Source: Parachlamydiales bacterium (lineage in GTDB: Bacteria; Chlamydiota; Chlamydiia; Chlamydiales; CALOCV01). Taken from it: a stretch of DNA of 64,000 nt. Below the pieces are notes generated by a model, which saw only the letters and a program-made list of their open reading frames with translations, ran no database searches and was not told the origin of the DNA. The stretch covers positions 47,762 through 111,761 of the forward strand of contig CALOCV010000015.1 in assembly GCA_942491955.1 (NCBI GenBank), in the 5' to 3' direction. Below are positions 1,712 through 55,203 of the stretch, piece by piece. Numbering within the stretch: the first letter of the stretch is position 1; the number at the start of each line of letters is the position of its first letter. The position numbers and the translations under genes were made by a program.

Positions 1712-1873
1712 ATACCAATTCCGGTAAGAAAATGCATAAAGTGGATTCAGGATTTTTTTGCGAAATTTGTTTTGGAGATCGCAGCAAACTCTTGTGAGTT
1801 TGCAAGATAGAAAAACAGATTGCGCAAAGAAAGATGAAGATCAATTTGTGCACTTTCTTACCGGAATTGGTAT
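1712..1873 (+). mobile_element. MITE-1 copy A (162-bp non-autonomous element)
   Basis: Terminal inverted repeats ataccaattccggtaagaaa / tttcttaccggaattggtat. Central perfect hairpin gcaaactc-ttgt-gagtttgc. Near-identical copies at 15497-15658 (inverted), 36137-36791 (split) and 54568-54729. Confidence 0.85.
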
Positions 1874-1893
1874 AACCACATTTTTACCGTCGT

Positions 1894-3282
1894 TTACGTC
1901 TTTTCCCTTTTGCGAGGCAGTGCCATGGAAAGAGCTTCCTGAAGATGGTCAACGGGAAGAAGGGCGATTTTTTTGTGGAGAGCAGGGGAGAGATTCTTGA
2001 TCCCTTTTTTTGGGAGGATACATTGCTGAAAACCGAGGTGAATCGCTTCTTTAATGCGCGTTTCGATGCGCGTTACGGGGCGGATTTCTCCGCTAAGGCC
2101 AACCTCGCCAATAAAAAGTGTATGGGGATCAAGGGGTTGGTTATGGAGCGACGAGGCAATCGATAGAGACAAGCCGAGATCAGTAGCAGGTTCCGTGATG
2201 CGGATACCACCGACAACAGAAACGAAGACGTCGCATCGTTGAAGGGGGTAACCCGCTCTTTTTTCGAGGACAGCAAGCAAGAGAGCCAAGCGGTTGGGAT
2301 CGATACCAGCGCTCCTTCGAGAAGGAGTCGCATAGGCCGTTTCCGCAATGAGCGATTGGATTTCGATGAGCAAAGCTCGAGAACCTTCGAGCGTCGGGAT
2401 GATGGCTGAGCCAATCTGGTGGAGTTGTCTCTCTTGTAAAAAAAGAAGGGAGGGATTGGGGATTTCGACAAGCCCCTTTTCCGTCATCGAGAAAATGGCA
2501 ACCTCATCAGTGGGACCAAAGCGATTTTTGACGACGCGGATCATACGGAAAGGGTGCTGCTTATCTCCTTCGAAATAGAGGACGGTATCGACGAGGTGTT
2601 CTAGAACACGAGGGCCGGCGATCTCTCCCGCTTTGGTAACATGACCGATAAGGAAAGTGGTCATTTGAAGACCTTTGGCCAAATGCATCAACTCAGTGGT
2701 GATTTCGCGCACTTGAGAGATGGAACCGGGAGAAGAGGGGAGATCGCTTTTATAAAGGACCTGAATTGAGTCGGCAATGAGGATATCAGGTCGAAGTTTT
2801 TCAATGTGGTGGCGGATGGCTGAGAAATGTGTTTCTGAAAGGAGATAGAGAGAGGGTGAGTCAATCCCAAGGCGCTTGGCACGAAGAGAGGTTTGTTCGG
2901 CAGACTCCTCTCCACATATGTAGAGGACCGTCAAACCTTGCGAAGAAAAAGAGTGAGAGAGTTGAAGAAGAAGGGTTGACTTTCCAATGCCGGGGTCTCC
3001 TCCGACAAGATTTAAAGAGCCTGGGGTAGTGCCTCCACCAAGAAGACGGTCCCATTCAGGAATCGTTGTTTTTACGCGCTGAAGAGATTCAACGGGAATC
3101 TCTTTGATTAGGAGAGGACGGGATTCTTTTTTTAATGAGGAGGTAAAGCGAGATGGAGGCGGGGGAGCTTCACTTTCTTCTTGCAGAGTATTCCACTCGT
3201 GACAAGAAGAACATTGTCCCACCCATTTTTGATGCTGTCCGCCACAGGAAGTGCACGACCAAATGGTTTTTACTTTACCCAT
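1894..3282 (-). CDS. radA: DNA repair protein RadA/Sms
   Basis: 462 aa. N-terminal zinc finger CTSCGGQHQKWVGQCSSCHEW, Walker A GGDPGIGKST, KNRFG motif, Lon-protease-like C-terminal domain. Confidence 0.95.
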   Translation of the reverse strand: MGKVKTIWSCTSCGGQHQKWVGQCSSCHEWNTLQEESEAPPPPSRFTSSLKKESRPLLIKEIPVESLQRVKTTIPEWDRLLGGGTTPGSLNLVGGDPGIGKSTLLLQLSHSFSSQGLTVLYICGEESAEQTSLRAKRLGIDSPSLYLLSETHFSAIRHHIEKLRPDILIADSIQVLYKSDLPSSPGSISQVREITTELMHLAKGLQMTTFLIGHVTKAGEIAGPRVLEHLVDTVLYFEGDKQHPFRMIRVVKNRFGPTDEVAIFSMTEKGLVEIPNPSLLFLQERQLHQIGSAIIPTLEGSRALLIEIQSLIAETAYATPSRRSAGIDPNRLALLLAVLEKRAGYPLQRCDVFVSVVGGIRITEPATDLGLSLSIASSLHNQPLDPHTLFIGEVGLSGEIRPVTRIETRIKEAIHLGFQQCILPKKGIKNLSPALHKKIALLPVDHLQEALSMALPRKREKT

Positions 3283-3992
3283 AATCCTTCATTCTGAAGC
3301 TGTTGTATTGCATCACAAGCAGCGGCCTGCTGGGCTTCCTTTTTCGAAGAGCCAACACCTGTGCCAAGAAGCTCTTGGTTTTTATAGACGCCAATGCGGA
3401 AGTCTTTTTTGTGGTCAGGGCCATTGGTTTCTAGGTTCTCGTAATGCGGGGTCATCTGGTAGTTTTTTTGGCACCAATCTTGAAGAGTTGTTTTCCAATT
3501 CGAGGTGGGTTGAGAGAGCAGTTTTTCCATGGTTTCAGAGAAATGGGATGTGAGAAATTGGCGAACGGTGGAAAGATCTCCATCAAGGAGGAGGGCTCCT
3601 ATAAGAGCTTCAAAGAAATCGGCGAGAATCGAATCTCTCCCTCTTCCTTCATTTCTTTGCTCACCTTTGCCAAGAAGGAGGTATTTTCCTAAATCGAGTT
3701 GCTTGACGTAATGCGCACAGGCCGCAGCAGAAACAAGGGTGGCGCGCATCGTTGAGAGATCTCCCTCAGGTGTTGTTGGGTGCTTGAGATAGAGTTCCTC
3801 AGCAATAAGGAAACCAAGGACGGCATCGCCCAAAAACTCGAGACGTTCATTGTAGTTGTCAAGTAGATCGTTTTCGTTAGCAAAAGAGCGATGAATGAAT
3901 GCAAGGGCGAGCAGGTCGGGGTTTTTAAATGTGTACCCGACTTTTTTTTGTATGGTTTCAAGATTTTCTAAAAGGGGACTTGGAATGTTCAT
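3270..3992 (-). CDS. rnc: Ribonuclease III
   Basis: 240 aa. RNase III signature ERLEFLGDAVLG and C-terminal dsRNA-binding domain (GSSKKEAQQAAA). Overlaps the radA start by 13 nt (operon). Confidence 0.95.
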   Translation of the reverse strand: MNIPSPLLENLETIQKKVGYTFKNPDLLALAFIHRSFANENDLLDNYNERLEFLGDAVLGFLIAEELYLKHPTTPEGDLSTMRATLVSAAACAHYVKQLDLGKYLLLGKGEQRNEGRGRDSILADFFEALIGALLLDGDLSTVRQFLTSHFSETMEKLLSQPTSNWKTTLQDWCQKNYQMTPHYENLETNGPDHKKDFRIGVYKNQELLGTGVGSSKKEAQQAAACDAIQQLQNEGLWVK

Positions 3993-4003
3993 GGGTAAGA
4001 ATC

Positions 4004-5652: not shown

Positions 5653-5675
5653 AAAAATTCCTTTTTAATCCATTT

Positions 5676-5823
5676 ATACCAATTTCAATACACAAGCACA
5701 CAAATTGATCCGCATATTTCTTGCTAAATCTATTTTTCTATCTTGCAAACTCACAAGAATTTACATCGTTCTCCAAAAACAATTTTTAATTCAATTTGTG
5801 TCTTTATTTTTTTCCATTGGTAC
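5676..5823 (-). mobile_element. MITE-1 divergent copy
   Basis: Shares the core ttttctatcttgcaaactcacaaga and flanking blocks (cacaaattgatc..., ctccaaaaacaattt) with MITE-1. Termini are degenerate (ataccaatttcaat ... ccattggtac). Confidence 0.6.
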
Positions 5824-6299
5824 CAATCTAAAAGATCCGAGCATATTTCGCAACATTAAGTTGTTTGGGTATATCTCCCTTTACGGAGATGTGGACAAAG
5901 CATGAACCTGTCCACAAAGTGCTTCGGCTATTATAGGAAATACGACAAGTTATCGGGGTCTTTAGAACCTGTTTAAAATCTTTCTAATCCTGTATAAACA
6001 ATTATTTTCCAAGACAATTGTAGGTATTTTATGCCCCATTGCTATCCTAGCGATATGGATCGTGAACAGTTTAACAAAATTAAACCTCTTCTGGAATCTG
6101 CAAGAGAAAAAAACACGTCCTAGAGCGGTCGACTTATATGATGTAATTTGTGGCATTTCATATGTTTGAAAAACCAGTTTACATATGGTCATCCTTGCTT
6201 TTGTCGTTTTATTCGTAAAACAGTTTTGAACGAGTTTTTAGAAAATAAACTACCACAGAGCCCACAGAGAACACAGAGGGAGGACATATAGATTGTTTA

Positions 6300-6494
6300 G
6301 TGCATCCAGAAATGTCTGAAGAAGTTGTAGAGGATCAGGTAATTATAGAAATTAAATCTGTGAATGGAATAGCTCTAATACACGAAGCACAACGACTATC
6401 TTATTTAAAGCTCTATGGAACTTGTGCTCGAGGATTGCTGATCAATTTTAATGTGAAACGATTGGTAGAAGGCATTCGTCGAATGAAAATATAA
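6300..6494 (+). pseudogene. C-terminal fragment of a GxxExxY-family (PD-(D/E)XK-like) protein carried inside an inverted-repeat module (6197-6566)
   Basis: VEDQVIIEIKSVNGIALIHEAQRLSYLKLYGTCARGLLINFNVKRL matches the C-terminal half of the family; the N-terminal half is absent. Flanked by ~33-bp inverted repeats ctaccacagagcccacagagaacacagagggagg (6250-6282) / ccctctctctgtgctctctgtgggctctgtggtag (6495-6539). Confidence 0.6.
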
Positions 6495-6571
6495 CCCTCT
6501 CTCTGTGCTCTCTGTGGGCTCTGTGGTAGTTTTTATTGCTGAGATATGTCAACCAAGTTTCTTAAGAACCT

Positions 6572-7114
6572 GTGAGAAAGTTTAAAAAAAAAATGGTTGG
6601 AGAGGTCCGACAAAACAATGGTCGGAAAGAGAAAACCAGTTTTATAATAATTGATGCGCAAAGCGTTAAAAATACCGATACAGCTGAGAGTAAAGGGTAT
6701 GATGCAGGAAAAAAAATTTCAGGGATAAAACGACACATCGCTGTAGACACCCAAGGATTACCTCATGCAATTCATATAACTACAGCAAATATTACAGATA
6801 GGAAAGGAGCGCTAGAAGCATGTTCATTGAAGAAGAGTTTTTTATCTGAAGTAAAAAACGTTTTAGGTGATGGAGGATACTCTGGAGAACCATTTTCAGA
6901 TGGTATTCAAGAGATATTGGGTTGTCCAGTAGAAATAGCCAAGAGAAATGAATTGCATACTTTTAAAGTGATTCCCAAAAGATGGGTTGTGGAACGTTCT
7001 TTTAGCTGGCTTGAAAAGTGTAGAAGATTATGGAAAAACTGTGAAAGAAAGCTAAATACTAGCTTAACTATGGTAGTCTTAGCATTTGTAGTTCTTCTTT
7101 TAAAAAGATTTTAA
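6572..7114 (+). CDS. IS5-family (IS427-like) transposase DDE ORF (orfB) of the deleted IS copy; probably non-functional without orfA
   Basis: 180 aa, near-identical to 45455-45976 (IIDAQSVKNTD...DGGYSGEPF...RWVVERSFSWL). Confidence 0.8.
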   Translation: MRKFKKKMVGEVRQNNGRKEKTSFIIIDAQSVKNTDTAESKGYDAGKKISGIKRHIAVDTQGLPHAIHITTANITDRKGALEACSLKKSFLSEVKNVLGDGGYSGEPFSDGIQEILGCPVEIAKRNELHTFKVIPKRWVVERSFSWLEKCRRLWKNCERKLNTSLTMVVLAFVVLLLKRF

Positions 7115-7153
7115 ACAGGTTCTAAGCAAGGCAAATTGTAGGGGATTGTATCA

Positions 7154-7384
7154 ATGAAAATATTTTATAATATAACCTCTCCAAAAGACTCAATTGTCGA
7201 GAAAATGATCAAAAGGGGAACGGCTCAATGGCGCTATGGTGCACGGCATGTTGGTCTTGCAATCCAAAATCACCACCCTTTCTCTCTTTTTGATAGAATC
7301 CAACACCTGGTTCTTGGGGTTCTTGAGTGCATTCCTTTGATCGGTCTCGGCGTAGTGATTGCTGATTATGTTGTAAATCGATGA
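7154..7384 (+). CDS. Hypothetical small protein with C-terminal hydrophobic helix
   Basis: 76-aa ORF between IS debris. No recognisable family. Confidence 0.3.
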   Translation: MKIFYNITSPKDSIVEKMIKRGTAQWRYGARHVGLAIQNHHPFSLFDRIQHLVLGVLECIPLIGLGVVIADYVVNR

Positions 7385-7420
7385 ATAGTCATGGAGTTGC
7401 AGCGAGTATTCTTAAACAAG

Positions 7421-7790
7421 GCTTTTGTCGTTTTATTCGTAAAACAGTTTTGAACGAGTTTTTAGAAAATAAACTACCACAGAGCCCACAGAGAACACAG
7501 AGGGAGGACATATAGATTGTTTAGTGCATCCAGAAATGTCTGAAGAAGTTGTAGAGGATCAAGTAATTATAGAAATTAAATCTGTGAATGGAATAGCTCC
7601 AATACACGAAGCACAACGACTATCTTATTTAAAGCTCTAAGGAGCTTGTGCCCGAGGATTGCTTATCAATTTTAATGTGAAACGATTGGTAGAAGGCATT
7701 CGTCGAATGAAAATATAACCCTCTCTCTGTGCTCTCTGTGGGCTCTGTGGTAGTTTTTATTGCTGAGATATGTCAACCAAGTTTCTTAAG
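7421..7790 (+). repeat. GxxExxY module copy 2 (fragment ORF now carries an internal stop)
   Basis: Collinear with 6197-6566 and 44756-45124, including both 33-bp inverted repeats. TAT->TAA at aagctctaagg. Followed at 7815-7833 by an isolated IS right-end-like sequence gattttgaacaggttc. Confidence 0.7.
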
Positions 7791-13438: not shown

Positions 13439-15427
13439 ATGCAGCCTTTGATTTTCCAAGATGTCGCTGTTATTCTTCTTCTCTCGGTGGGCGTTCTCTT
13501 TCTTTGTCACCGCCTTCACATCCCATCTCTTGTCGGGTTTCTCATTACAGGCATTGCAGCAGGACCTGATGGGTTAAAACTCGTAGGGACGACAGAAAAC
13601 GTTAAAGTATTAGCGGAAACAGGTGTTATTCTTCTTCTGTTTAGTATCGGGATGAATTTTTCGATTCGAAAATTGTTTGATCTCAAACGTTTTTTCTTCA
13701 TTGGGGGTCCACTACAAGTTCTATTGACGGCATCCATTGGATTTCTTGCTGCACAGGTGATCGGCAGGCCGTTTGGAGAATCGATTTTTTTAGGATGGTT
13801 GATTTCGCTAAGTAGTACTGCGATTGTCTTGACTCTATTGGAAGAGAAAAAAGAGTTGTCAACTCCTCAAGGGAATGTGGCAACCTCTGTTCTTATTTTT
13901 CAAGATGTTGCTGCTGTATTAATGATCTTGTCGACGCATTTTCTTGTTGGAGAAAAGTCGATCGTTTTTTCGCCTGAAATTTTTGTGGATCTGGGAAAGG
14001 GACTACTACTCCTTATCTTTGTCTTTTTTGCTTCGGAGAAAATGGTTCCTTGGCTTCTATACCATGTTGTACGAACCCGTATTCGAGAGCTTTTTCTTTT
14101 TACCGTACTCTCCCTTTGTTTTGCTGTTGCATGGCTCGCTTCTTTCGTGGGTCTCTCTCTGTCGATTGGGGCTTTTTTGGCGGGATTAACAATTTCTGAG
14201 ACGGAGTATAGCAATGAGGCAGTAGGGGATATTCGCCCTTTACAAGCCCTGTTCACCAGTTTCTTTTTTATTTCCATAGGGATGTTATTAGATTTTGACT
14301 TTGTCATTCGCTATCCCATGCTCATTTTTCTTTTAGCGGCAGGTGTCATTTTTTTAAAAATCGTGGTTTGTTTTCTTGCAATGATTTTCATCGGATTACC
14401 CATTCGTATTGCTGTGACTGTGGGTTTTTTCCTTGCTCAAGTAGGAGAATTTTCCTTTGTACTTGTCGAATCGGGTATTGCGGCAGGTATAGGAACCGAT
14501 TACCACTATCAGCTTTTTCTGGCTGTTGCATTGTTGACGATGCTCGTTTCTCCCTTGTTGATCGCGCTAGCGCCACATGTAGGACGCTACATCTCCCAAT
14601 GGAAATATTGGCCTGAAAAGATCAAAACGGGAATCACAACATTTCCCAAGGGGAGTATTCCTCTTTTTGATCGTGCTCATGTCATTATTGTCGGTTATGG
14701 TCCTTGTGGTGAGTATTTAGCAAGAGCGTGCCGAATTGCTCAAGAGCCTTATGCCATTTTAGAAATGGACCCACACATTGTACGAAGAGAGAAAAGGAAA
14801 GGAGAGAAAATTTTCTTTGGGGATGCAACGCATGAAAATGTTTTGCACAGTGTTCATATACAAGATGCGGGTGTTCTTGCTGTGTTAGTTGATGAGCTGG
14901 CTGTTGCGCAATGCCTTGTTCGAATGGCAAGGCAAATCAATCCAAAGCTCTATATTGTTGTTCGCATGCGCTCGATGGAAAAAATGAAGATGATGCTCGA
15001 TCTAGGAGCTGACGATGTGATACCCGATGAATTTGGCACGTCCGTCGAGATTTTTACACGCGTGATGAAACATTGTCATGTTCCTGATGAGGAAATTTCC
15101 GCTTTCGTGAACGAAATCCGAGAAGAAGGGTATGAAATTTTACGACCACTTCATCAAAAGCGTTTTCTAGCCGATATCAACCTTGTTTCCACTGAATTAG
15201 AGATTGAAGCTTTTCGGATTCGAGAGGGTTCTTTTCTCTGTGGAAAAAGTTTAGAAGAGGCTTCTTTTCAAAGGACACACCGCATTCACGTGGTGATGGT
15301 AAAACGAAAAGGGGTAGTATTCTCGCAGCTAGATCCAAGTTTAGTCTTAGAAGAGCGTGATATCCTGATCGTTGTAGGAACAAAAGAACGCTTACGAGAA
15401 TTCGCTGAATACTTATACCAATCCTAA
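13439..15427 (+). CDS. CPA2 (Kef-type) monovalent cation:proton antiporter with C-terminal RCK (TrkA-N/TrkA-C) domains
   Basis: 662 aa. About 12 TM N-terminal domain, Rossmann-like VIIVGYGPCG, and a TrkA-C-like C-terminus. Confidence 0.9.
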   Translation: MQPLIFQDVAVILLLSVGVLFLCHRLHIPSLVGFLITGIAAGPDGLKLVGTTENVKVLAETGVILLLFSIGMNFSIRKLFDLKRFFFIGGPLQVLLTASIGFLAAQVIGRPFGESIFLGWLISLSSTAIVLTLLEEKKELSTPQGNVATSVLIFQDVAAVLMILSTHFLVGEKSIVFSPEIFVDLGKGLLLLIFVFFASEKMVPWLLYHVVRTRIRELFLFTVLSLCFAVAWLASFVGLSLSIGAFLAGLTISETEYSNEAVGDIRPLQALFTSFFFISIGMLLDFDFVIRYPMLIFLLAAGVIFLKIVVCFLAMIFIGLPIRIAVTVGFFLAQVGEFSFVLVESGIAAGIGTDYHYQLFLAVALLTMLVSPLLIALAPHVGRYISQWKYWPEKIKTGITTFPKGSIPLFDRAHVIIVGYGPCGEYLARACRIAQEPYAILEMDPHIVRREKRKGEKIFFGDATHENVLHSVHIQDAGVLAVLVDELAVAQCLVRMARQINPKLYIVVRMRSMEKMKMMLDLGADDVIPDEFGTSVEIFTRVMKHCHVPDEEISAFVNEIREEGYEILRPLHQKRFLADINLVSTELEIEAFRIREGSFLCGKSLEEASFQRTHRIHVVMVKRKGVVFSQLDPSLVLEERDILIVVGTKERLREFAEYLYQS

Positions 15428-15496
15428 TATACCCAAACAACTTCAAGAATTGGGTTTATGGCTTTGAAAAAAACCCGGATCAGTTGTTTGGGTATA

Positions 15497-15658
15497 ATAC
15501 CAATTCCGGTAAGAAAGTGCACAAATTGATCTTCATCTTTCTTTGCGCAATCTGTTTTTCTATCTTGCAAACTCACAAGAGTTTGCTGCGATCTCCAAAA
15601 CAAATTTCGCAAAAAAATCCTGAATCCACTTTATGCATTTTCTTACCGGAATTGGTAT
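15497..15658 (-). mobile_element. MITE-1 copy B (inverted orientation)
   Basis: Full-length reverse complement of copy A with both TIRs. Abutted on the left by a ~67-bp palindromic unit atacccaaacaact...agttgtttgggtat (15429-15495). Confidence 0.85.
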
Positions 15659-15851
15659 AAAGTGGAGTGCGAAGGCCCTGCCTTCGCGTTCTTCGCGTTG
15701 AATAGACTCTGGATTTTTTGTAGCCAATCCGTTAACCTTCTCTTGTGTCAGGAGTTTCTTTTGAAAAGATCAGCTTGAACGAATTCTTCTGAGTTTTGCT
15801 TATCAAGCTCAGAAAAAAGTTCCCTCACATCTCCAGAAAAATAAAAACAGA

Positions 15852-16784
15852 GTGATCGTTCTAGCAGGGCCTACCGCTGTTGGAAAGAGTGATTTTGCGA
15901 TCGAAATCGCTAAAAAAATCGAAGGAGAGGTGATCTCCGCCGATTCGATGCAAGTCTATCGGGGAATGGATATTGGTACAGCAAAAGTCGATCCCGTCGT
16001 GCGCTTGGAAGTTCCTCATCATCTACTCGATATTCGAAATCCCAGTGAGCCTTTCAATGTCGTCGATTTCTACTACGAAGCTCGACACGCGTGTCAAGAA
16101 ATACTGAATCGGGGAAGTGTTCCAATCATTACCGGAGGATCGGGATTTTATCTCCATGCATTTATCTATGGCCCTCCAAGTGGCCCTCCTTCCATTCCAG
16201 AAGTACGAGAAAAGCTCGAGAAAGAATGGGAGAAATGGGGCGCTGAATTTCTCTTTTCACGGCTTAAAAAAATCGACCCCGCCTATGCAAAAACCATCAC
16301 TCTTCACGATCGCCACAAGGTGATCCGTGGCCTTGAAATCATTGAGTTAACAGGAAAACCGGTTAGCTACCTTCCTTGGAGCGAGCGGCGAAGACCTCAA
16401 AATTATGATTTTCGTTGTTGGTTTCTCCATCGTCCGCGAGAAAGCCTCTACCAACGGATCAATGCTCGTTGCGATGCCATGCTAGAAGCTGGTTTTTTGC
16501 AAGAAGTGGAAGAGTTATTGGAAAAAAACATAGAAGAAAATCCTTCTGCAGCACAAGCGATTGGCTATCGTCATGCTATTGCTTATTTGCGAAGCGAACA
16601 GGGGCCCGAGGCTCATGCGGCATTTGTCCGTGAGTTCAAGCGAAGCTCGCGCCAATATGTCAAAAAACAACTGACATGGTTCCGGAATAAAAAAGAGGCT
16701 ATCTTCCAGTGGCTGGATCTTGATTTGCATGACAATGAAGTGGCTCAAGAAATGGTCATTAACGATTATTTTGAAACGCGCTAA
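15852..16784 (+). CDS. miaA: tRNA dimethylallyltransferase MiaA (start uncertain; frame open upstream to 15765)
   Basis: P-loop GPTAVGKS, ISADSMQVYRGMDIGTAK, and GGSGFYL motifs. Confidence 0.9.
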   Translation: MIVLAGPTAVGKSDFAIEIAKKIEGEVISADSMQVYRGMDIGTAKVDPVVRLEVPHHLLDIRNPSEPFNVVDFYYEARHACQEILNRGSVPIITGGSGFYLHAFIYGPPSGPPSIPEVREKLEKEWEKWGAEFLFSRLKKIDPAYAKTITLHDRHKVIRGLEIIELTGKPVSYLPWSERRRPQNYDFRCWFLHRPRESLYQRINARCDAMLEAGFLQEVEELLEKNIEENPSAAQAIGYRHAIAYLRSEQGPEAHAAFVREFKRSSRQYVKKQLTWFRNKKEAIFQWLDLDLHDNEVAQEMVINDYFETR

Positions 16785-16882
16785 GAATGTGATTGGGGCG
16801 TGTCATCAATCGTCTAAGAACCTGTCTTCACACTTCAAATGGCATCTCACGTTATCGGATTTGATGATAAGTCGTGTTCAGC

Positions 16883-16988
16883 TTTTCTATCTTGCAAACT
16901 CACAAGAGTTTGCTTCGATCTCCAAAATAAATTTCGCAAAAAAAAATCTTGAATCCAAGATATCTTATTATGTCTTTCCGCTGGCATC
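16883..16988 (-). mobile_element. MITE-1 truncated copy (one end missing)
   Basis: ttttctatcttgcaaactcacaagagtttgcttcgatctccaaaataaatttcgcaaaaaaa... matches the core and one arm only. Confidence 0.6.
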
Positions 16989-17423
16989 TTTTTTTCTAGT
17001 CATTGGTATTACTTTTTGTTTTTATTTTTCTATATCTCTTTGATAGTGATCTTTGTTCGAATGAATAGGATTCAATTTGATAAAAAAGATCTTGATTCAG
17101 TTGTCAAGAAAAGAAAATTGATTTATGATGCTTGTAAAAATATTTACCATTCAAAACCATATAAGGTTTTTGATAAATAATTGACTTGCAATGAGTTTTT
17201 CTCTGCACAATTCTTTCCCCTCGGGGGAGGAAAACTTACCTTAAAAACGATGCAAATAGAGAAAAATAAAATTTTGCAACGTTTCAATGAGACATCTTCT
17301 CATGAAGAATCTTCAAACCCCATCTGTGCCCCATATTGTGCTTAAACAAACGAATTATTCTCCCTTTTGTTGTGTTTAAGTGTGATCTAAGGTACAGATA
17401 GGGTTCAATCCATACCAATGTGA

Positions 17424-19103: not shown

Positions 19104-19437
19104 TCGTTTGATCCCCGGAATTTTCTCTTTGCCAGAAACCAATTCTTGAAGTTGGCGGTGGTGAACCCAAATTTTGATTCACCTGATAATCAAAAGTTTG
19201 TTAAGCTGTCTGCATAACTATTTGGTATAAGAACGATCTAACGATAGACACGATGTAGAAAATTGGAATGGAAGAGACTAGAAAGAATCCGAATTTAGCT
19301 CATTTCAAGTATGAAGACAGGTTCTTAGATGTGGAATAATACCAAATAGGGTCCAGAATAGTTACGGATAGGATTCAATCTCCCCGTGACGCGAAAAAGG
19401 CGTTTGTGGTATACCCACGTTAATATGAGGTGGTATT

Positions 19438-32197: not shown

Positions 32198-32198
32198 A

Positions 32199-34386: not shown

Positions 34387-34400
34387 AGTGATTCATATGA

Positions 34401-34473
34401 TGGGCGCAACAGGACTCGAACCTATGACCACCTGTGTGTAAGACAGGCGCTCTACCAACTGAGCTATGCGCCC
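34401..34473 (-). tRNA. tRNA-Val (TAC)
   Basis: Reverse complement: acceptor gggcgca/tgcgccc, anticodon stem cctgt/acagg with loop ctTACac, T-loop ttcgagt. Confidence 0.9.
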
Positions 34474-35997: not shown

Positions 35998-36136
35998 ATG
36001 CAAAAAGGTTCTATACGATGTATACCCAAACAACTTCAAGAATTGGATTTATGGCTTTGAGAAAACCCATAAATCCAATTAGCGACTTTGCGTTTCCATT
36101 TTTTTAGGCAAAACTTCTCCGACAAGACCTTGCTTT

Positions 36137-36791: not shown

Positions 36792-36936
36792 TAATTAGTT
36801 TTTGAATTTACTTCGGTATCATACCAATCCTAATAAAAATAAATCGAGAGAGGGCAAAGGCACCTCTGATTGTCTTCAGTCCTTGACAAATAGAAAAGTA
36901 TCGAGTATCAATGTTGGGTTTTTGAAAGGTTAAAAC

Positions 36937-39027
36937 ATGTTTTACGGAATGTTTGCATTTATTCTTATTTGTGGCTTCATAGCCCTTTTCTTTGGTCTCC
37001 TCTTTATTCGTTCTATCTTGTCACAACCAACAGGGAATGAAGAGATGAAGCGGATTGCACAAGCAATCCAAGAGGGTGCCAATGCCTATCTCAATCGACA
37101 GTATCGCGTGATTACTTTGGTAGGCATTGTGATCTTTTTGTTGCTTACCTGGCAGCTTGGCCTCCATGTGGGTGTTGGCTTCATTATAGGAGCGGTGCTC
37201 TCTGGTCTTGCTGGATATGTTGGGATGCACGTCTCGGTTCGTGCCAACGTAAGAACAACAGAAGCTGCAAGAAAAGGATTATCACAAGCGCTTGATGTCG
37301 CCTTTCGAGCCGGTGCTGTGACGGGGTTGCTCGTCGTCGGTTTAGGCCTTTTAGGAATCACCTTTTATTTTCTCTATCTAACGCTTGCTAGGTATGATGT
37401 GCGCACCATGATGGAGTCTCTTGTTGCCTTGAGCTTTGGAGCCTCTTTGATTTCCATTTTTGCTCGTCTTGGTGGAGGCATATTCACAAAAGGAGCTGAT
37501 GTTGGAGCTGACCTCGTGGGAAAAGTGGAATCGAATATTCCCGAGGATGATCCAAGAAATCCTGCTGTCATTGCGGATAATGTTGGCGATAACGTAGGAG
37601 ATTGTGCAGGAATGGCTGCCGATCTTTTTGAGACTTATGTTGTCACTCTTGTTGGATCGATGCTACTCGCCGCGATTTTTTTTAAGGGTGCTATTCTGGA
37701 AAAATTGATTCTGTATCCTTTGGCAATAGGTGGTGTATGCATCCTGATGACCATCATTGGGACTTTTTTTGTTCGTTTAGGCAAAACAAACAACATCATG
37801 GGAGCCCTGTATAAAGGATTTTTTGCTACAGCGATTCTTTCGGCAGTTAGCATTGGTATTCTCACCTATGCGTATCTCGACAAAGGTGCATCCTACCGAG
37901 TTAACGAGACCACCTTTACCAATATGAACCTTTTCATTTGTGCCTTGACTGGCCTTTTTGTTACAGGACTTTTGATGTGGTTGACCGAGTACTACACCTC
38001 GACGAAGTATCGTCCCGTTCGGAGCATTGCATTCGCTTCTACTTCGGGACATGGGACGAATGTGATTCAAGGTCTTGCTATTTCCATGGAAGCAACCGCT
38101 TTGCCCGTTCTAGTCATTTGTGGAGGAATTCTCGTATCGTATCTCAATGCAGATCTTTTTGGTATTGCTATTGCAGCGACTTCGATGTTGGCATTAGCTG
38201 GAATGGTCGTCGCTTTGGATGCCTATGGTCCTGTAACCGACAATGCAGGAGGGATTGCAGAGATGGCGCATCTTCCTGATGAAATTCGGACAACAACGGA
38301 TGCATTGGATGCTGTTGGGAATACGACAAAAGCGGTAACAAAAGGGTATGCGATTGGATCCGCAGCCTTTGCAGCTCTTGTGCTTTTCACGGCATTCATT
38401 GAAGATTTGACCTATTATTTCCCCAATCTAGAATGTAATTTCTTTTTACAAAATCCGTATGTCGTTCTCGGGCTTTTTATTGGAGGTCTTCTTCCCTATC
38501 TCTTTGGTGGAATGAGCATGATGGCAGTCGGTCGAGCAGCTCAGGCGGTTGTTGCCGAAGTGAGGCGGCAATTTTCTGAGATCAAAGGAATTATGGAAGG
38601 GAAAGCCCGTCCCGATTATGGACAAGCGGTCGACATATTAACACGGGCAGCGATCCGTGAAATGATCGCCCCCTCCCTTCTTCCCGTTCTTGCTCCGATC
38701 CTTCTCTACATGGTGATCCATTTCATAGCGGGGCAAAAGGAAGCTCTGGTTGCTTTGGGCTCGATGCTTCTTGGTCTTGTCGTCACTGGGATCTATGTTG
38801 GCATTTCCATGACAGCAGGTGGTGGGGCATGGGATAATGCTAAAAAACTCATCGAAGATGGGCAGCACGGAGGAAAAGGAGCTGAAGCCCATAAAGCGGC
38901 TGTTACAGGAGATACTGTGGGAGATCCCTACAAAGATACTGCTGGTCCAGCTATCAATCCGATGATTAAGATTGCCAATATCGTTGCCTTGCTTCTTTTA
39001 GCGGTATTATCACAATATTTTTCGTAA
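36937..39027 (+). CDS. hppA: Membrane-bound proton-translocating pyrophosphatase
   Basis: 696 aa, about 16 TM. Motifs [20 protein letters not shown] and [21 protein letters not shown]. Confidence 0.95.
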
Positions 39028-44306: not shown

Positions 44307-44388
44307 GGGGGTGTCGCATAGTGGCAATTGCAAGGGACTGTAAATCCCTCGACTTCGGTCTTCGTCAGTTCGAGTCTGACCGCCCCCA
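44307..44388 (+). tRNA. tRNA-Tyr (GTA), class II with long variable arm
   Basis: Acceptor gggggtg/cgccccc, anticodon arm aggga ctGTAaa tccct, variable arm cgacttcggtcttcg, T-arm gtcag ttcgagt ctgac. Confidence 0.85.
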
Positions 44389-44524
44389 AACCTAGTTCTG
44401 AGTGGGAATTTTCTTCTTTACCCACTTTCTCTAAAATCCTCCAATTACGCAAATTTTACGCACTTGATTGCAGCAAACAGCAGCTATTTTCTGTTACTTT
44501 TCTTTCAGATCATTTTATTTCTTA

Positions 44525-45124
44525 GAACCTGTTTAAAATCTTTCTAATCCTGTATAAACAATTATTTTCCAAGACAATTGTAGGTATTTTATGCCCCATT
44601 GCTATCCTAGCGATATGGATCGTGAACAGTTTAACAAAATTAAACCTCTTCTGGAATCTGCAAGAAAAAAAACACGTCCTAGAGCGGTCGACTTATATGA
44701 TGTAATTTGTGGCATTTCATATGTTTGAAAAACCAGTTTACATATGGTCATCCTTGCTTTTGTCGTTTTATTCGTAAAACAGTTTTGAACGAGTTTTTAG
44801 AAAACAAACTACCACAGAGCCCACAGAGAACACAGAGGGAGGACATATAGATTGTTTAGTGCATCCAGAAATGTCTGAAGAAGTTGTAGAGGATCAGGTA
44901 ATTATAGAAATTAAATCTGTGAATGGAATAGCTCTAATACACGAAGCACAACGACTATCTTATTTAAAGCTCTATGGAACTTGTGCCCGAGGATTGCTGA
45001 TCAATTTTAATGTGAAACGATTGGTAGAAGGCATTCGTCGAATGAAAATATAACCCTCTCTCTGTGCTCTCTGTGGGCTCTGTGGTAGTTTTTATTGCTG
45101 AGATATGTCAACCAAGTTTCTTAA
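44525..45124 (+). mobile_element. IS variant left-end fragment (44525-44750) + GxxExxY module copy 3 (44756-45124)
   Basis: Collinear with 5965-6566. The variant orfA fragment MPHCYPSDMDREQFNKIKPLLESARKKTRPRAVDLYDVICGISYV* ends in a premature stop. Confidence 0.75.
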
Positions 45125-45174
45125 GAATCTGTTTAAAATCTTTCTAATCCTGTATAAAAATTGTTTTCAAAACT

Positions 45175-45516
45175 TTGGAGGCAATGATGGCTCACTCTTA
45201 TCCAAGCGATATTTCTCGAAAGCAATTTGACAAAATCAAACCTTTGCTTGAGTCTGTGCGAAAAAAAACACGCCCTAGAACCGTAGACCTTTTTGATATT
45301 TTTTGTGGAATTTTATATGTTTTAAAAAGTGGCTGTCAGTGGCGTATGTTGCCAAAAGAATATCCTAAATGGGAACTTTGCTATTACTATTTCCAGTTAT
45401 GGAAAGAAAGCGATGATAATTCAGAAAGCATCCTTGAGAAAGTTTTAAAAAAAAATGGTTGGAGAGGTCCGACAAAACAATGGTCGGAAAGAGAAAACCA
45501 GTTTTATAATAATTGA
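45175..45516 (+). CDS. IS5-family transposase orfA (HTH part)
   Basis: 113 aa. YPSDISRKQFDKIKPLLE...GCQWRMLPKEYPKW is typical of IS5/IS427-group InsA. Confidence 0.8.
   Translation: MEAMMAHSYPSDISRKQFDKIKPLLESVRKKTRPRTVDLFDIFCGILYVLKSGCQWRMLPKEYPKWELCYYYFQLWKESDDNSESILEKVLKKNGWRGPTKQWSERENQFYNN
45447..45455 (+). promoter_or_regulatory. Probable programmed -1 ribosomal frameshift site (A9) joining orfA and orfB
   Basis: The A-run lies in the orfA/orfB overlap. A -1 slip gives ...EKVLKKKMVGEVRQNNGRKEKTSFIIIDAQSVK. Confidence 0.55.
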
Positions 45517-45976
45517 TGCGCAAAGCGTTAAAAATACCGATACAGCTGAGAGTAAAGGGTATGATGCAGGAAAAAAAATTTCAGGGATAAAACGACACAT
45601 CGCTGTAGACACCCAAGGATTACCTCATGCAATTCATATAACTACAGCAAATATTACAGATAGGAAAGGAGCGCTAGAAGCATGTTCATTGAAGAAGAGT
45701 TTTTTATCTGAAGTAAAAAACGTTTTAGCTGATGGAGGATACTCTGGAGAACCATTTTCAGATGGTATTCAAGAGATATTGGGTTGTCCAGTAGAAATAG
45801 CCAAGAGAAATGAATTGCATACTTTTAAAGTGATTCCCAAAAGATGGGTTGTGGAACGTTCTTTTAGCTGGCTTGAAAAGTGTAGAAGATTATGGAAAAA
45901 CTGTGAAAGAAAGCTAAATACTAGCTTAACTATGGTAGTCTTAGCATTTGTAGTTCTTCTTTTAAAAAGATTTTAA
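45455..45976 (+). CDS. IS5-family transposase orfB (DDE domain)
   Basis: 173 aa. IIDAQSVKNTD, ADGGYSGEPF, RWVVERSFSWLEKCRRL. Confidence 0.85.
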   Translation: MVGEVRQNNGRKEKTSFIIIDAQSVKNTDTAESKGYDAGKKISGIKRHIAVDTQGLPHAIHITTANITDRKGALEACSLKKSFLSEVKNVLADGGYSGEPFSDGIQEILGCPVEIAKRNELHTFKVIPKRWVVERSFSWLEKCRRLWKNCERKLNTSLTMVVLAFVVLLLKRF

Positions 45977-46068
45977 ACAGGTTCTAAGGGACAAAACCTT
46001 TAAACGTAAGTCCTTTTTGTCTTTTAGGTCTCTCAGGTCCTTTTCGTCCCTTTGTCCCTTTTAGTACG

Positions 46069-46148
46069 ATGAAAAGCCTTTTCCGCCCTCCCAAGGTGTC
46101 TATCAAGTCTGCTTTCCTATTCGGAAAGCGGACATTATTTTCTCTATA
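46069..46148 (+). pseudogene. Degenerate 5' remnant of a four-helix-bundle-family gene with its upstream leader repeat
   Basis: DNA similarity of 45990-46148 to 54400-54560 (…ttttcgtcccttNNgtcccttttagtacgatgaaaa…ctatcaagtNtgctttcctat…). The remnant ends in a stop after 26 codons. Confidence 0.4.
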
Positions 46149-47678: not shown

Positions 47679-47957
47679 TTAGTCAGCATCTCCTCCGTCA
47701 CCCCCATTGCCTCCGATGCCATAGACGCTTCCACCTCCATTACCACCGTGGCCGCCATGTTGCCCATTTTTGCCGTCCTCTCCGTCTTCTCCATTCTCTC
47801 CATCTTCAAGATAGCTTGAAGAGCCATGTTCTCCGTCTTTTGTCCTGGAGGGTTGTTCAACATCATTGGAAATTCTTCTCGTTCCATAGGCATTTAATGA
47901 AGAAAATGTAATGAGCATACATCCAATGAGCATACAAAATAAATCAGTCATTTTCAT
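47679..47957 (-). CDS. Secreted Gly-rich repeat protein 3 (acidic: GEDGEDG...GGHGGNGGG...GGNGGDGGDAD)
   Basis: 92 aa. Signal-peptide-like N-terminus ending SSLNA|Y. RBS-like aaaggaa 10 nt upstream of the ATG. Confidence 0.65.
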   Translation of the reverse strand: MKMTDLFCMLIGCMLITFSSLNAYGTRRISNDVEQPSRTKDGEHGSSSYLEDGENGEDGEDGKNGQHGGHGGNGGGSVYGIGGNGGDGGDAD

Positions 47958-47981
47958 TTGTTAAAATTCCTTTTAATAGGG

Positions 47982-48299
47982 TTACTTGCTTTTACCGTCT
48001 TGTCCGTCACTGCCATTGCCAGCGGGTCCTCTGCCTCCCATGCCGCCTAAGCCCCCGCCTTGCGAGCCATCTCCACCGTTTCCTCCATTGCCACCCCTGC
48101 CATATTGGCTATCTCCTCCATTACCGCCGTGGCCGCCACGCCCAGAATTGCTGTTCCCGCCATTCCCTCCGTTACCACCATCCTCATGAATGCTATTTCC
48201 CCCATGGCCACCATTACCTCCATCTCTTGCATGCAATGCTATTGTTGCGTTCATGAAAACAACCAAAGAAAGCAAAATTTTTAGAGTCATATTTTTCAT
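47982..48299 (-). CDS. Secreted Gly-Asn-His repeat protein 2
   Basis: 105 aa. Signal peptide MKNMTLKILLSLVVFMNATIALHA, then GGNGGHGGNS...GGNGGNGGNSNSGRGGHGGNGGDSQYGRGGNGGNGGDG. The start overlaps the upstream gene's stop (ATGA). Confidence 0.7.
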   Translation of the reverse strand: MKNMTLKILLSLVVFMNATIALHARDGGNGGHGGNSIHEDGGNGGNGGNSNSGRGGHGGNGGDSQYGRGGNGGNGGDGSQGGGLGGMGGRGPAGNGSDGQDGKSK

Positions 48300-48526
48300 C
48301 CCGCATCTCCTCCATGACCGCCATTACCACCGCTAACTCCTCCATGTCCGCCGTTGCCACCATGTCCTCCATTGCCAGAACCACTATTCCCGCCATTACC
48401 ACCATTGCCTGCGCTTCCAGGAGAATGACCTCCATGACCACCATTCCCTCCATTAGCAGCTTGTAAATCTGCTGCTAATAACAACGCCAATAAAGAAAAG
48501 ATTAACAAAATTTTTCTCGATTTCAT
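48296..48526 (-). CDS. Secreted Gly-Asn-His repeat protein 1
   Basis: 76 aa. Signal peptide MKSRKILLIFSLLALLLAADLQA, then ANGGNGGHGGHSPGSAGNGGNGGNSGSGNGGHGGNGGHGGVSGGNGGHGGDAG. RBS aagggag 7 nt upstream. Confidence 0.7.
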   Translation of the reverse strand: MKSRKILLIFSLLALLLAADLQAANGGNGGHGGHSPGSAGNGGNGGNSGSGNGGHGGNGGHGGVSGGNGGHGGDAG

Positions 48527-50114: not shown

Positions 50115-50375
50115 GGAGTGCCTATTGAGACGAGCAAATTGAAACGTCCGCGCAAAAGGAAGACCTAGGAGTACTTTGGATATGTCGGCTGAGAAATTAC
50201 GCAAATTTTATGTACTTGGCCACAAACAAGTGGAGCAAAAGGGCACAATCCAGCATAATAGTTTGTTTGAAACACTTTGATTTTGCTGTGATTCTGTGTT
50301 CTTGCTTGCTAGGGATAGCAGAAAGAGATCCGACAGTAAATTCTTGGTCTTGGTTGGTTTGAGGCCTACAGAGGA
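50115..50375 (+). repeat. att-like repeat block R1: tail of small gene + ttacgcaaattttatgtacttg motif + degenerate tRNA-Tyr 3' fragment
   Basis: Collinear with 54095-54365. Ends in ccgacagtaaattcttggtcttggttggtttgagg, compared with tRNA ggactgtaaatccctcgacttcggtcttcgtcagttcgag. Confidence 0.6.
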
Positions 50376-53891: not shown

Positions 53892-53919
53892 GATCTTGCA
53901 ATGAATATTTGGAAGCAGA

Positions 53920-54147
53920 TTGAGAGAGGTTATTATGGCGGATAAAGAAAAGCAAGACATTCATAAGATTCTATTGGCTGCCCACAAACGAGGCGTGCAG
54001 CAGGCGATTGATCTCTCGATCCGCACGGGCGTGCCGCTTGTCATAGAAAAGAATGGGAAGATTATTGAAATACCACCAAAGTACAAATACATTCGGGTGC
54101 CCATTGAGGCGGACAAGCCTAAGCGTCCGCACAAAAGGAAGACCTAG
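53920..54147 (+). CDS. Small protein with basic tail (KPKRPHKRKT) at the distal end of an island module
   Basis: 75-aa ORF. Its 3' end is duplicated as a remnant at about 50115-50170 (PIETSKLKRPRKRKT*). Confidence 0.5.
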   Translation: MREVIMADKEKQDIHKILLAAHKRGVQQAIDLSIRTGVPLVIEKNGKIIEIPPKYKYIRVPIEADKPKRPHKRKT

Positions 54148-54365
54148 GAATTTCTTGGATATGTCGGCTGAGAAATTTACGCAAATTTTACGCACTTGGC
54201 CACAAACAAGTGGAGCAAAAGGGCACAATTCAGCACAATAGAGTCTTTCGAAAAGGATTGATTTTGCTGTGCTTATGTGCTCTTGTTTGCTGCGGTCTAT
54301 AGAAAGAGAACCGACTGTAAATCCCTCGACTTCGGTCTTCGTTGGTTCGAGTCCAATCGCCCCCA
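54095..54365 (+). repeat. att-like repeat block R2 ending in a 53-nt near-perfect copy of the tRNA-Tyr 3' part
   Basis: 54313-54365 gactgtaaatccctcgacttcggtcttcgttggttcgagtccaatcgccccca, compared with tRNA 44336-44388. The T-stem differences are compensatory (gtcag/ctgac -> gttgg/ccaat). Confidence 0.75.
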
Positions 54366-54479
54366 AAAAGGACAAGGGACATAAAGGACCTAAGGGACCT
54401 AAAAAAAGAGACCAAAGGGACAATGTTTCAGTTTGGTGTCTCTTTGGTCCTTTTCGTCCCTTAAGTCCCTTTTAGTACG

Positions 54480-55203
54480 ATGAAAAAATCCTTCTTACCA
54501 CCCCATGGTGGCTATCAAAGTTTGCTTTCCTATCAAAAAGCTGAAATCGTTTACGACGCTACCGTTTATACCAATTCCGGTAAGAAAATGCATAAAGTGG
54601 ATTCAGGATTTTTTTGCGAAATTTGTTTTGGAGATCGTAGCAAACTCTTGTGAGTTTGCAAGATAGAAAAACAGATTGCGCAAAGAAAGATGAAGATCAA
54701 TTTGTGCACTTTCTTACCGGAATTGGTATTACTTCACGCAAAGGTTTTATCGAAAAGGGGATCGCACGATGGATCAAATGGTTCAGGCGGCGCGTTCGGG
54801 TAAGCAAAACATTGCCGAAGCCAGTCAAGCATCGGGAACATCGAAAGAGATGGAGATTAAGTTGACGAATGTCGCTCGAGCAAGTCAAGAAGAGTTATTG
54901 TTAGATTATCGGGATTTTCTTCGGATTCATCAACTCGAAGAGTGGGCAAAAGATCACCCCCTTACAAGTCGGTTGCGTATTTTATGTAAATCTCCTCAAC
55001 CCACCTACACAACGTTTCAAAAAGGGATAGAACATTCCGAACCAGTCATTTCCGCCAATGTCATCATCGGTTTAATCAAAGTAACCAATTATCTTCTTGA
55101 CCAGCAAATTCGTCGGTTAGAGGAAGACTTTTTGCGCGAAGGAGGCTTGCGCGAACGGATGACCAAAGCCAGACTTGCTGTTCGCAATCAAAGAAAACGC
55201 TAG
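54480..55203 (+). pseudogene. Four-helix-bundle family protein (with suffix-type C-terminal domain) interrupted by a MITE-1 insertion
   Basis: MKKSFLPPHGGYQSLLSYQKAEIVYDATVY | 162-bp MITE | (Y)FTQRFYRKGDRTMDQMVQAARSGKQNIAEASQASGTSKEMEIKLTNVARASQEELLLDYRDFL... The flanks are in frame, and the MITE contains stop codons. Confidence 0.8.
54568..54729 (+). mobile_element. MITE-1 copy D, inserted inside a coding sequence
   Basis: Full-length, with both TIRs. Differs from copy A at only a few positions. Confidence 0.85.

Follow-up and report, generated by a model that had tools for sequence, protein, structure and literature searches.

The 64,000-nucleotide stretch of DNA analysed here (the window) holds four near-identical copies of a short repeat (A–D), three diverged or truncated relatives (E–G), and two further end fragments, and the question is whether these are a family of MITEs that has moved recently and, if so, what kind of enzyme moved them. 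In all likelihood they are a real, recently transposed MITE family, probably driven by a DDE transposase of the IS5/Harbinger type. The family is new and clear-cut, while elements of this kind are well known.

The element proper measures 160 bp, from TACC to GGTA, with TACCAATTCCGGTAAGAAA at the left end and TTTCTTACCGGAATTGGTA at the right, and contains no transposase gene. Its TIRs are perfect over 19 bp counted from TACC and over 20 bp counted from ATACC. The sequence-only reading had described a 162-bp MITE with 20-bp TIRs; the TIRs survive computational alignment, whereas the length does not, the outer A/T belonging to a 3-bp target-site duplication (TSD). The TIR 19-mer TACCAATTCCGGTAAGAAA has eight matches in the window (0.03 expected), forming four inverted pairs exactly where that reading had placed its full copies, and in the copy alignment identity stops exactly at TACC/GGTA, beyond which the flanks are unrelated. 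Every full copy has a central hairpin, GCAAACTC-TTGT-GAGTTTGC, with a perfect 8-bp stem, as had been noted for the intact ones; in copy A it lies at 1784–1803 (+), at the apex of an imperfect palindrome that takes in the whole element, the two halves being about 75% self-complementary and the 20-bp TIRs only the perfect outer part. The GC content is 36%, versus 43% for the window. Six-frame translation gives stop-rich frames without a transposase-sized ORF, plus one 53-codon frame open from end to end, which is not beyond chance and has other element copies as its sole homologues; no copy encodes a transposase, where the sequence-only reading had said no protein.

Copy A (1710–1875, +) is formed by the element at 1713–1872 between TAA at 1710–1712 and TAA at 1873–1875, and sits between the 3′ ends of two convergent genes, a NeuB-like gene (17–1639, +) and radA (1894–3282, −). 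The host is a chlamydia-like bacterium, and its radA product shares about 64% identity with Protochlamydia RadA. Copy B (15495–15660, −; element 15498–15657, TAA/TAA on the + strand) is 100% identical to A. It directly adjoins the right end of a 65-bp mini-element with TACCCAAACAAC ends (15430–15494). Copy D (54566–54731, +; element 54569–54728, TTA/TTA) is identical to A at 161 of 162 positions, with one mismatch, and lies inside a four-helix-bundle gene. Copy C (36135–36793, +), 146 bp upstream of an H+-PPase gene (36937–39027), is split: the element spans 36138–36790, with TTA at 36135–36137 and 36791–36793, and once the nested insert is taken out it differs from A by a single C>T, in the later of the two hairpin copies. 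The mutual identity of the four, 99.4–100%, bears out the near-identity first reported and indicates that the last burst was recent.

The insert in copy C, nested element X (36230–36700), is 471 bp long, non-coding, and unique in the window, with TIR CTATAGTTTATAGG and GC-rich internal palindromes. As the sequence-only reading had proposed, it interrupts the MITE hairpin, 22 bp of which are duplicated on either side of it as AGCAAA[C/T]TCTTGTGAGTTTGCA; both flanks were located (36208–36229 and 36701–36722), and they differ by one C>T. That X duplicated the whole 22-bp palindrome could reflect an insertion mechanism that targets palindromes and staggers its cuts unusually far, or one that is site-specific.

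Transposition is supported by a 3-bp TSD, which flanks all five elements that retain both ends (A, B, C, D, and the short relative G): three have TTA and two have TAA, and an identical TWA pair so spaced would arise by chance at 4.9e-4 per site. The first reading had passed over this TTA/TAA duplication. Insertion itself is demonstrated twice, at copies D and C, and that of copy D knocked out a gene. Copy D splits a four-helix-bundle (4helix_suffix) gene at 54480–55203 (+), and deletion of 54569–54731, that is, the copy and one TTA, restores an intact 186-aa ORF that matches TIGR04258 (3.9e-21) and whose match to TIGR02436 spans the insertion point; read into the copy, the interrupted gene meets a stop after 27 codons. 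For copy C, a paralogous empty site exists at 58673–58770 (+), colinear with the flanks of C minus the element and one TTA, the target TTA being TCA there.

The copies are, moreover, not restricted to the window, a restriction that by the first reading's own terms would have refuted it. Searching with element-encoded peptides brought up five ORFs outside the window, with element-derived segments 94–100% identical and different flanks, on five NCBI-only contigs of 12,403, 61,415, 59,901, 75,220, and 31,155 bp. For three of the five, matched TSDs can be deduced from the residues on either side (Y...L giving TTA/TTA, N...stop giving TAA/TAA). Two of the five contigs are equal in size to contigs carrying the IS transposase cluster of the window, and this agreement, together with the NCBI-only source, suggests that the five copies come from the same organism as the window. 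Element copies are thus dispersed on at least six contigs, the window's included. Their density had been called high for an obligate intracellular lineage, which overstates the case: repeat-rich genomes are documented in the intracellular symbionts Amoebophilus (PMC3196728), Cardinium (PMC9769881), and Orientia (PMC2575882).

The count of at least seven copies also holds, since the three relatives are real by nhmmer profile search (E-values of 8e-34, 2.5e-28, and 2e-15), and the two end fragments add to it. Relative E (5674–5822, −; 146 bp) is separated by 24 bp from the downstream start of a cyclophilin gene and has a TTA/TACC junction at its window-left end and, at the other, GGTA with no matching TSD; its arms mismatch at 8/26 positions. 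The truncated relative F (16878–17011, −) still has the hairpin core and a single true end, GGTA followed by TTA (17005–17011), its other arm being cut off beside an IS5-type end (GAACCTGTCTTCA at 16818); the bounds first given, 16883–16988, become 16878–17008 with this true right end. Subfamily G (32092–32201, −; element 32095–32198, 104 bp, TTA/TTA) lacks the central ~56 bp and with them the hairpin, whose absence had been seen, and has TIRs of different inner sequence that are perfect over 24 bp, not 25; its right TSD is also the stop codon of a queG-like gene (32199–33143, −). One end fragment, TTA followed by TACCAAATAGGGTAACTAAATGTGTAAATTGGATTG (58758–58798, −), has a family-type arm of ~38 nt and a marginal profile score (E = 0.16); the other, TAA followed by TACCAAATAGGGTCC..GGATTCAATC (19337–19390, +), has the terminus TACCAAATAGGG in common with it. 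E, F, and G, with other small TACC(C)AA-ended elements, reveal an older, diversified superfamily in this genome.

What, then, drives the family? Present in the window are IS elements of two or more IS5-type families, along with several small repeat families of other kinds. IS-A (45122–45987, +) is a resident IS5-family element of 860 bp (45125–45984, TSD TAA/TAA), with orfA (DUF4096) and orfB (DDE_Tnp_1), an A-run frameshift, and a TIR, GAA[T/C]CTGTTTAAAATC, unrelated to those of the MITE; IS-B is decayed and GAACCTGTCTTCA-ended. An IS5-type enzyme is the likeliest driver because the 3-bp TWA TSD is a signature of the IS5 and PIF/Harbinger lineage and two such IS types are present; it is the length and sequence of the TSD that make the IS5/Harbinger assignment probable. 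The element inserts at T(T/A)A and duplicates the triplet; in the mechanism we propose, a DDE transposase supplied in trans would bind both ends, staggered cuts of 3 bp would be made in the target, and repair would leave the TSD. The partner encoding this enzyme would have to carry TACCAA... ends, and would lie outside the window or be extinct. No autonomous element sharing the MITE TIRs occurs within the window, and public collections of genomes, metagenomes, viruses, plasmids, and phages yielded no partner ending in TACCAATTCCGG: exact scans returned nothing real for the TIR 19-mer in 185,579 species genomes and the viral collection, for the TIR 24-mer and hairpin core in JGI metagenomes, or for the core in the viral collection, and BLAST against plasmids and phages gave no partner. 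Of the earlier proposal, recent mobilisation by a transposase encoded elsewhere, the recent transposition and the supply in trans are supported, while the autonomous element with the same TIRs was not found in these searches.

It is unlikely, in our view, that the resident IS5-family transposases (of IS-A, 45125–45984, or IS-B) cross-mobilise the MITE with no dedicated TACCAA-ended partner. Such cross-mobilisation would agree with the IS copies at 5962, 44522, and 45122, whose TSD (TAA/TTA) and target type are the same as those of the MITE, with the intact, multi-copy state of IS-A in the assembly (five contigs carry its exact protein, whose 90% cluster comprises 22 members), and with the repeated adjoining of IS-B ends and TACCAA-type ends. 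However, DDE transposases normally require their own terminal bases, and the TIRs have no meaningful similarity (GAACCTGTTTAAAATC versus TACCAATTCCGGTAAG): the two IS5-type elements of the window end in GAACCTGT..., unrelated to the MITE TACCAATT, and TACCAATTCCGG resembles neither GAACCTGTTTAAAATC (IS-A) nor GAACCTGTCTTCA (IS-B). When the MITE is compared with the window by BLAST, no IS is matched significantly, and separate solo ends that do match IS termini are already present there.

There is a slim chance that the TACC(C)AA-ended elements make up a superfamily specific to this lineage, with a transposase that recognises no fixed TIR sequence but just the terminal TACCAA and an arm that is folded or symmetric. 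Between A and G, 7/7 differences in the left TIR recur at the matching positions of the right arm, and the interiors are 86% identical; these mirrored changes, the whole-element hairpin, and the ends unlike those of the IS types here are suggestive of such recognition.

That the family is primarily a structured RNA or DNA palindrome maintained by selection for some host role (as terminator, mRNA stabiliser, or sRNA; compare RPE, ERIC, and REP), with spread secondary, we consider quite improbable. The fold of the whole element as RNA is very stable (−80.4 kcal/mol, z = −15), nine pairs are changed on both sides between subfamilies (reached by 0/500 shuffles), conservation among A, E, and F is highest in the central core, and most copies are intergenic, two of them between convergent genes. 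Yet this arm co-variation is equally expected if one transposase must bind both TIRs, and precise TSDs and a gene-disrupting insertion are the behaviour of a transposon. The element shows no promoter motif, terminator motif, or U-tract terminator and matches no Rfam family, the strands differ little in G–U pairs (4 versus 1), and the copies have no consistent orientation to neighbouring genes.

Very improbable indeed is an IS630/Tc1-mariner-type MITE, in which the TA of TACC would itself be the TSD. Elements of that type, Correia in Neisseria and RUP in Streptococcus pneumoniae, are ~100–160 bp long and intergenic, with long TIRs starting in TA and a TA TSD; they are like the present family in size, TA-starting TIRs, and intergenic dispersal, and differ from it in the 2-bp TSD versus 3 bp here. 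Every copy does have TA at both ends of TACC...GGTA, which formally allows this reading, but the three bases outside it are direct repeats in 5/5 complete elements and vary together (TAA/TAA or TTA/TTA). The reconstruction at copy D effectively refutes the TA reading, which leaves five extra bases and a frameshift, restoration requiring removal of TACC...GGTA plus 3 bp. Local segmental duplication or gene conversion, to which the near-identity of the copies and other duplicated segments in the window might point, is refuted by flanks unrelated up to the element ends, the TSDs, and the copies on five other contigs with different flanks.

Three other classes do not fit. Elements derived from IS200/IS605 have subterminal hairpins but neither TIRs nor TSD, and they insert on the 3′ side of one fixed tetra- or pentanucleotide; the family here has perfect TIRs and a TSD. 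Rickettsia palindromic elements (RPE), found in an obligate intracellular host, are of 100–160 bp, with a whole-element hairpin and an open frame, and insert in frame in ORFs. An RPE-like in-frame insert does not fit the stop that follows 27 codons into copy D. REP/BIME sequences, mobilised by RAYT, are palindromes of 20–40 bp with a GTAG/CGTC tag and no TSD (PMC3733652); the element here is 160 bp long, has a TSD, and ends in TACC.

In host type, size, hairpin, and open frame the family does resemble RPE and the palindromic repeats of intracellular bacteria, such as the Cardinium MITE (PMC9769881); it differs in its sharp TIRs and TSD, and its one intragenic insertion introduces a stop, not an in-frame peptide. 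It also resembles Tourist-like MITEs and PIF/Harbinger elements, which have TIRs and a 3-bp TSD (PMC2213677), and the related bacterial IS5 family (IS1031/IS427/ISL2-type), with which it has the 3-bp TWA TSD in common, along with small size, AT-richness, TIRs, and the lack of coding capacity. Its termini, TACCAATTCC, are nevertheless unlike both the GA/GG-starting GAACCTGT... ends of the IS5-type elements in the window and the IS5 TIRs of GAGACCTTTGCA type that PMC4596501 lists. BrickBuilt, MITE293, and MITE700 of Porphyromonas gingivalis (PMC4596501) are likewise bacterial, non-autonomous, nested with other mobile elements, and present in roughly ten or more copies; however, their TIRs are identical or nearly so to those of resident IS5-family elements and their TSDs are irregular, in contrast to the unmatched TIRs and strict 3-bp TWA here.

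Full-text literature searches found no paper describing a MITE in chlamydiae, so that this is, as far as searched, the first MITE family for the phylum. Our understanding of how MITEs work is unchanged by it; the copies can serve as strain-typing markers and flag assembly breaks. For the organism, the family documents recent transposition in a chlamydia-like lineage, one copy amounts to a dated gene knock-out, and the strict TWA target coupled with unmatched TIRs points towards a transposase of this genome that awaits discovery.

Eight occurrences of the 19-mer TACCAATTCCGGTAAGAAA lie in the window, against 0.03 expected from dinucleotide shuffles, and form four inverted pairs (1713/1872, 15498/15657, 36138/36790, and 54569/54728) at the ends of the four near-identical full copies of the element, A to D. 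By BLASTN within the window, A is matched at 100% identity over 162 nt by copy B, which lies on the opposite strand, and at 99.4% by copy D. Copy C aligns as two pieces (36137-36235 and 36701-36791) which, once rejoined, equal A save for a single C>T, in the second repeat of a duplicated hairpin. That hairpin, GCAAACTC-TTGT-GAGTTTGC, is carried by every full copy. A profile built from the family detects seven members in the window: A, B, and D (E-value ~1e-52), the halves of C (~1e-28), the diverged relative E at 5676-5823 (8e-34), the end-truncated relative F at 16877-16986 (2.5e-28), and G, a short subfamily lacking the hairpin, at 32094-32199 (2e-15); a marginal eighth lies at 58760-58795 (0.16). 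The sequence-only reading, which had proposed terminal inverted repeats (TIRs), near-identical full copies, at least seven copies in all, and a hairpin in the intact ones, is thus confirmed in each of these respects.

When the copies are aligned with 30 bp of flank, similarity ends exactly at TACC... and ...GGTA, and each element keeping both ends is bordered by a directly repeated triplet: TAA on the left and right of A and of B (read on the window strand), and TTA on both sides of C, D, and G. At that spacing, identical triplets are found at 1.9% of window positions, and identical triplets that are TTA or TAA at 0.049%. Because the ends are sharp and the flanking triplets are repeated beyond chance, the element is 160 bp long and gives a target-site duplication (TSD) of 3 bp, T(T/A)A; the 162 bp originally proposed described a real element, but had counted one TSD base per side. 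The 20-bp TIR is just the perfect outer portion of a longer palindrome, the element being ~75% identical to its own reverse complement over its full length, so that either strand by itself folds back into a single long hairpin, at -80.4 kcal/mol (z = -15) when read as in copy A and at -64.8 kcal/mol (z = -12) in the opposite sense. The asymmetry in G-U pairs between strands (4 vs. 1) is uninformative on selection at the RNA level. The element has 36% GC in comparison with 43% for the window.

Copy D sits within a gene, and so records its own insertion. Removal of 54569-54731, that is, copy D and one TTA, restores a 186-residue ORF (...YDATVY|FTQRF...) that matches a four-helix-bundle suffix domain (TIGR04258, 3.9e-21) and, at residues 18-86 and across the junction, a four-helix-bundle family (TIGR02436, PF05635); with copy D present, the reading frame meets a stop 27 codons into the element. 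Under a 2-bp (TA) duplication, five bases too many would remain and the frame would be shifted; since this model fails where the 3-bp model restores the gene, copy D by itself settles where the element ends and how long the TSD is. The flanks of copy C are another short repeat, of which a second copy lies at 58673-58770; once the element is taken out together with one TTA, both repeat loci align colinearly across the insertion point, the target TTA corresponding to TCA in the paralogue.

The insert splitting copy C, element X, occupies 36230-36700 (471 bp, TIR CTATAGTTTATAGG) and has neither an ORF nor a second copy within the window. It directly follows the hairpin, and a 22-bp duplication that takes in the whole palindrome flanks it, just as the sequence-only reading had it. 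A 22-bp TSD that duplicates an entire hairpin is unusually long; long TSDs do occur in some IS groups, such as the subgroup of the IS1202 family with more than 15 bp (PMC10132070), but element X ends in CTATAG and not in the TGT/ACA of that family. This single case may stem from a long staggered cut with the palindrome at its centre, or else from site-specific recombination there. Beside copies A and B (1663-1677 and 15663-15677) and inside element X (36301-36315 and 36395-36409) are GC-rich palindromic repeats that share the ending ...CGCACTCCA (four against 0.24 expected) and form a separate REP-like family.

We looked for copies beyond the window with the 53 codons of the only frame open throughout the element, on its minus strand, using an indexed search and an exhaustive HMMER search of 1.84 billion representatives. 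Four ORFs (P0143, P0144, P0145, and P0146) contain element-derived segments with 94-100% identity, and a peptide from the opposite strand found a fifth, P0148. All five are singletons found only in NCBI, on contigs of 12,403, 61,415, 59,901, 75,220, and 31,155 bp; the window proteins sit on a 206,862-bp NCBI contig. As the IS transposase cluster of the window is also present on the contigs of 61,415 and 59,901 bp, the simplest inference is that the five ORFs belong to other contigs of the same draft assembly. Local segmental duplication would have confined the copies to the window, and these five lie outside it, with flanking residues that differ among them and from the window copies. The frame also allows the duplications to be decoded, a Y before the element corresponding to TTA and an N to TAA, and an L after it to TTA and a stop to TAA: Y...L in P0143 and P0145 and N...stop in P0144 again give matched duplications. 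Because a census of called ORFs misses most copies, none of the four window copies being represented in it, the true copy number is probably well above nine. In P0146 (75,220-bp contig), the annotated 321-residue ORF begins inside the element and reads out of it into an apparent signal-peptide-bearing protein; the start annotated for this gene may come from the element or have been displaced by it.

The seven members belong to a wider superfamily of elements. TTA or TAA directly before TACCAA is found at 18 places in the window in comparison with 0.87 expected; outside the seven members, such ends lie at 15413, 19222-19230 (-), 19337, 30476, 34105, and 58790-58798 (-). Terminal TACCAA and subterminal arms are common to the subfamilies, whose inner TIRs differ. 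All seven differences between the left-arm TIRs of A and G recur at the same positions of the right arm, whereas the left arms are 86% identical over the adjoining 42 bp; in a four-sequence alignment nine pairs change on both sides, a number reached by 0 of 500 shuffles, with slid controls giving 0-1. Such co-variation fits TIRs that co-evolve with distinct transposase variants, and fits hairpin selection or conversion equally well. A 65-bp mini-element at 15430-15494 (TACCCAAACAAC...GTTGTTTGGGTA, 12-bp TIRs) directly adjoins copy B, which inserted at the triplet immediately beside one of its ends. Other such ends lie at 5860-5871 (-), 30450, and 36023, and four of the five TACCCAAACAAC ends are within 120 bp of a TACCAA-type element; this clustering suggests that nesting or end-targeted insertion is common.

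As to what mobilises the family, the window contains two IS5-type elements. The first, IS-A, is an intact 860-bp IS5-family IS at 45125-45984 (NF033580) with a DUF4096 orfA, a DDE_Tnp_1 orfB, and an A-run frameshift in between; its TIR is GAA[T/C]CTGTTTAAAATC, also written GAACCTGTTTAAAATC. It is flanked by TAA/TAA (45122-45987), and other copies at 5962-7125 and 44522-44716 are preceded by TTA; the exact transposase is present on five assembly contigs, and its 90% cluster has 22 members. The second, IS-B, is decayed: its ends, GAACCTGTCTTCA, lie at 16818, 19324 (19312-19324 on the minus strand), 29944, and 34581, TAA precedes those at 16818 and 29944, and a DDE_Tnp_1_5 transposase fragment at 29970-30374 (-) accompanies them. 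The duplications of these IS point to enzymes duplicating TTA or TAA that are active in this genome or recently were, and a 3-bp TSD is described as a hallmark of the related PIF/Harbinger superfamily (PMC2213677). The MITE ends, TACCAATTCCGG, are unrelated to those of either IS. Pfam scans of ~45 window ORFs found as transposases only the IS5-type orfA/orfB and one DDE_Tnp_1_5 fragment, neither bounded by TACCAA, nor is any other ORF in the window; pairing of ends (15416-17008 over miaA, 34108-36790, and 30479-32198) gave no credible larger TACCAA-ended element. The proposed driver would be a DDE transposase of IS5/Harbinger type with TACCAA ends, encoded elsewhere in the genome and acting in trans. 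As the TSD is the one basis for this assignment and the TIRs show no similarity to the local IS5-type elements, we give such an enzyme roughly an even chance; that the element is a MITE we regard as very probable.

Exact searches elsewhere were essentially empty. Among 185,579 species genomes, the TIR 19-mer gave three matches, in Lachnospiraceae and Gracilibacteria contigs, all lone 19-20-mers lacking a second arm and at chance level; in JGI metagenomes neither the TIR 24-mer nor the 22-mer core of the hairpin had a match, and exact scans of viral contigs and BLAST against plasmids and phages were likewise empty.

The window has several further repeats. Inverted IS-B ends at 16818 and 19324 bracket 2.5 kb that hold relative F and a 540-residue ORF lacking a Pfam match. 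A truncated GxxExxY/PD-(D/E)XK mini-gene with ~35-bp inverted repeats (CTACCACAGAGCCCACAGAGAACACAGAGGGAGG) splits orfA in two IS copies, each time at one and the same point, with a third partial copy nearby (6157-6530, 44716-45090, and 7381-7700); it resembles a small mobile cassette or else a composite that was duplicated. The tRNA-Tyr 3' end recurs 10 kb downstream of the gene as a 55-bp copy (91%; 44336-44390 vs. 54313-54367), adjoined by a 235-bp repeat (50118-50351 vs. 54097-54332); these att-like repeats suggest an integrated island, and no integrase was found between 44336-44390 and 54313-54367. Preceding the four-helix-bundle gene is a 60-bp repeat, GGTCCTTTTCGTCCC...TTTTAGTACGATGAAAA, with two more occurrences elsewhere (46030-46089, 54441-54500, and 56609-56668); it may be an upstream or 5' region common to a small family of paralogous genes. 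Minus-strand ORFs at 47687-48463 and 55208-55351, paralogous and small, have 9-nt periodicity and Gly-rich repeats (GGNGGHGG-like).

The copies lie in varied settings. Copy A is flanked by convergent genes, a NeuB-like gene and radA; copy B lies 3' of a gene for a KefB-type antiporter and 5' of miaA; copy C is 146 bp and E 24 bp upstream of the genes for an H+-pyrophosphatase and a cyclophilin, respectively; and G lies between convergent genes, one of them queG-like, with a stop codon provided by the TSD of G. Orientation relative to neighbouring genes is inconsistent, sigma-70 promoter and intrinsic-terminator motifs are absent in and around copy A, and an Rfam scan of the window returned four tRNAs and no family for the element. 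The window RadA is 100% identical to one NCBI protein, and its next-best matches, at 60-65% identity, include proteins named as Protochlamydia, Parachlamydia, and "Chlamydiia bacterium"; judged by these matches, the host is a chlamydia-like bacterium with no close sequenced relative in the collections searched.

Among known elements, the features defining REP, IS200/IS605-derived, and RPE-like repeats were not found, and an IS630/mariner-type MITE fails on the TA duplication. The element behaves as a Tourist-type or IS5-derived MITE and has all the generic features of a MITE except an identified partner. Full-text literature searches returned no MITEs described in chlamydiae. The high density that the sequence-only reading remarked on for an intracellular lineage is notable but not startling, because such repeat richness is well documented for the genomes of other intracellular symbionts (PMC3196728, PMC9769881, and PMC2575882). 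Its central claim of recent mobilisation is borne out: this is a genuine MITE family that has recently transposed.
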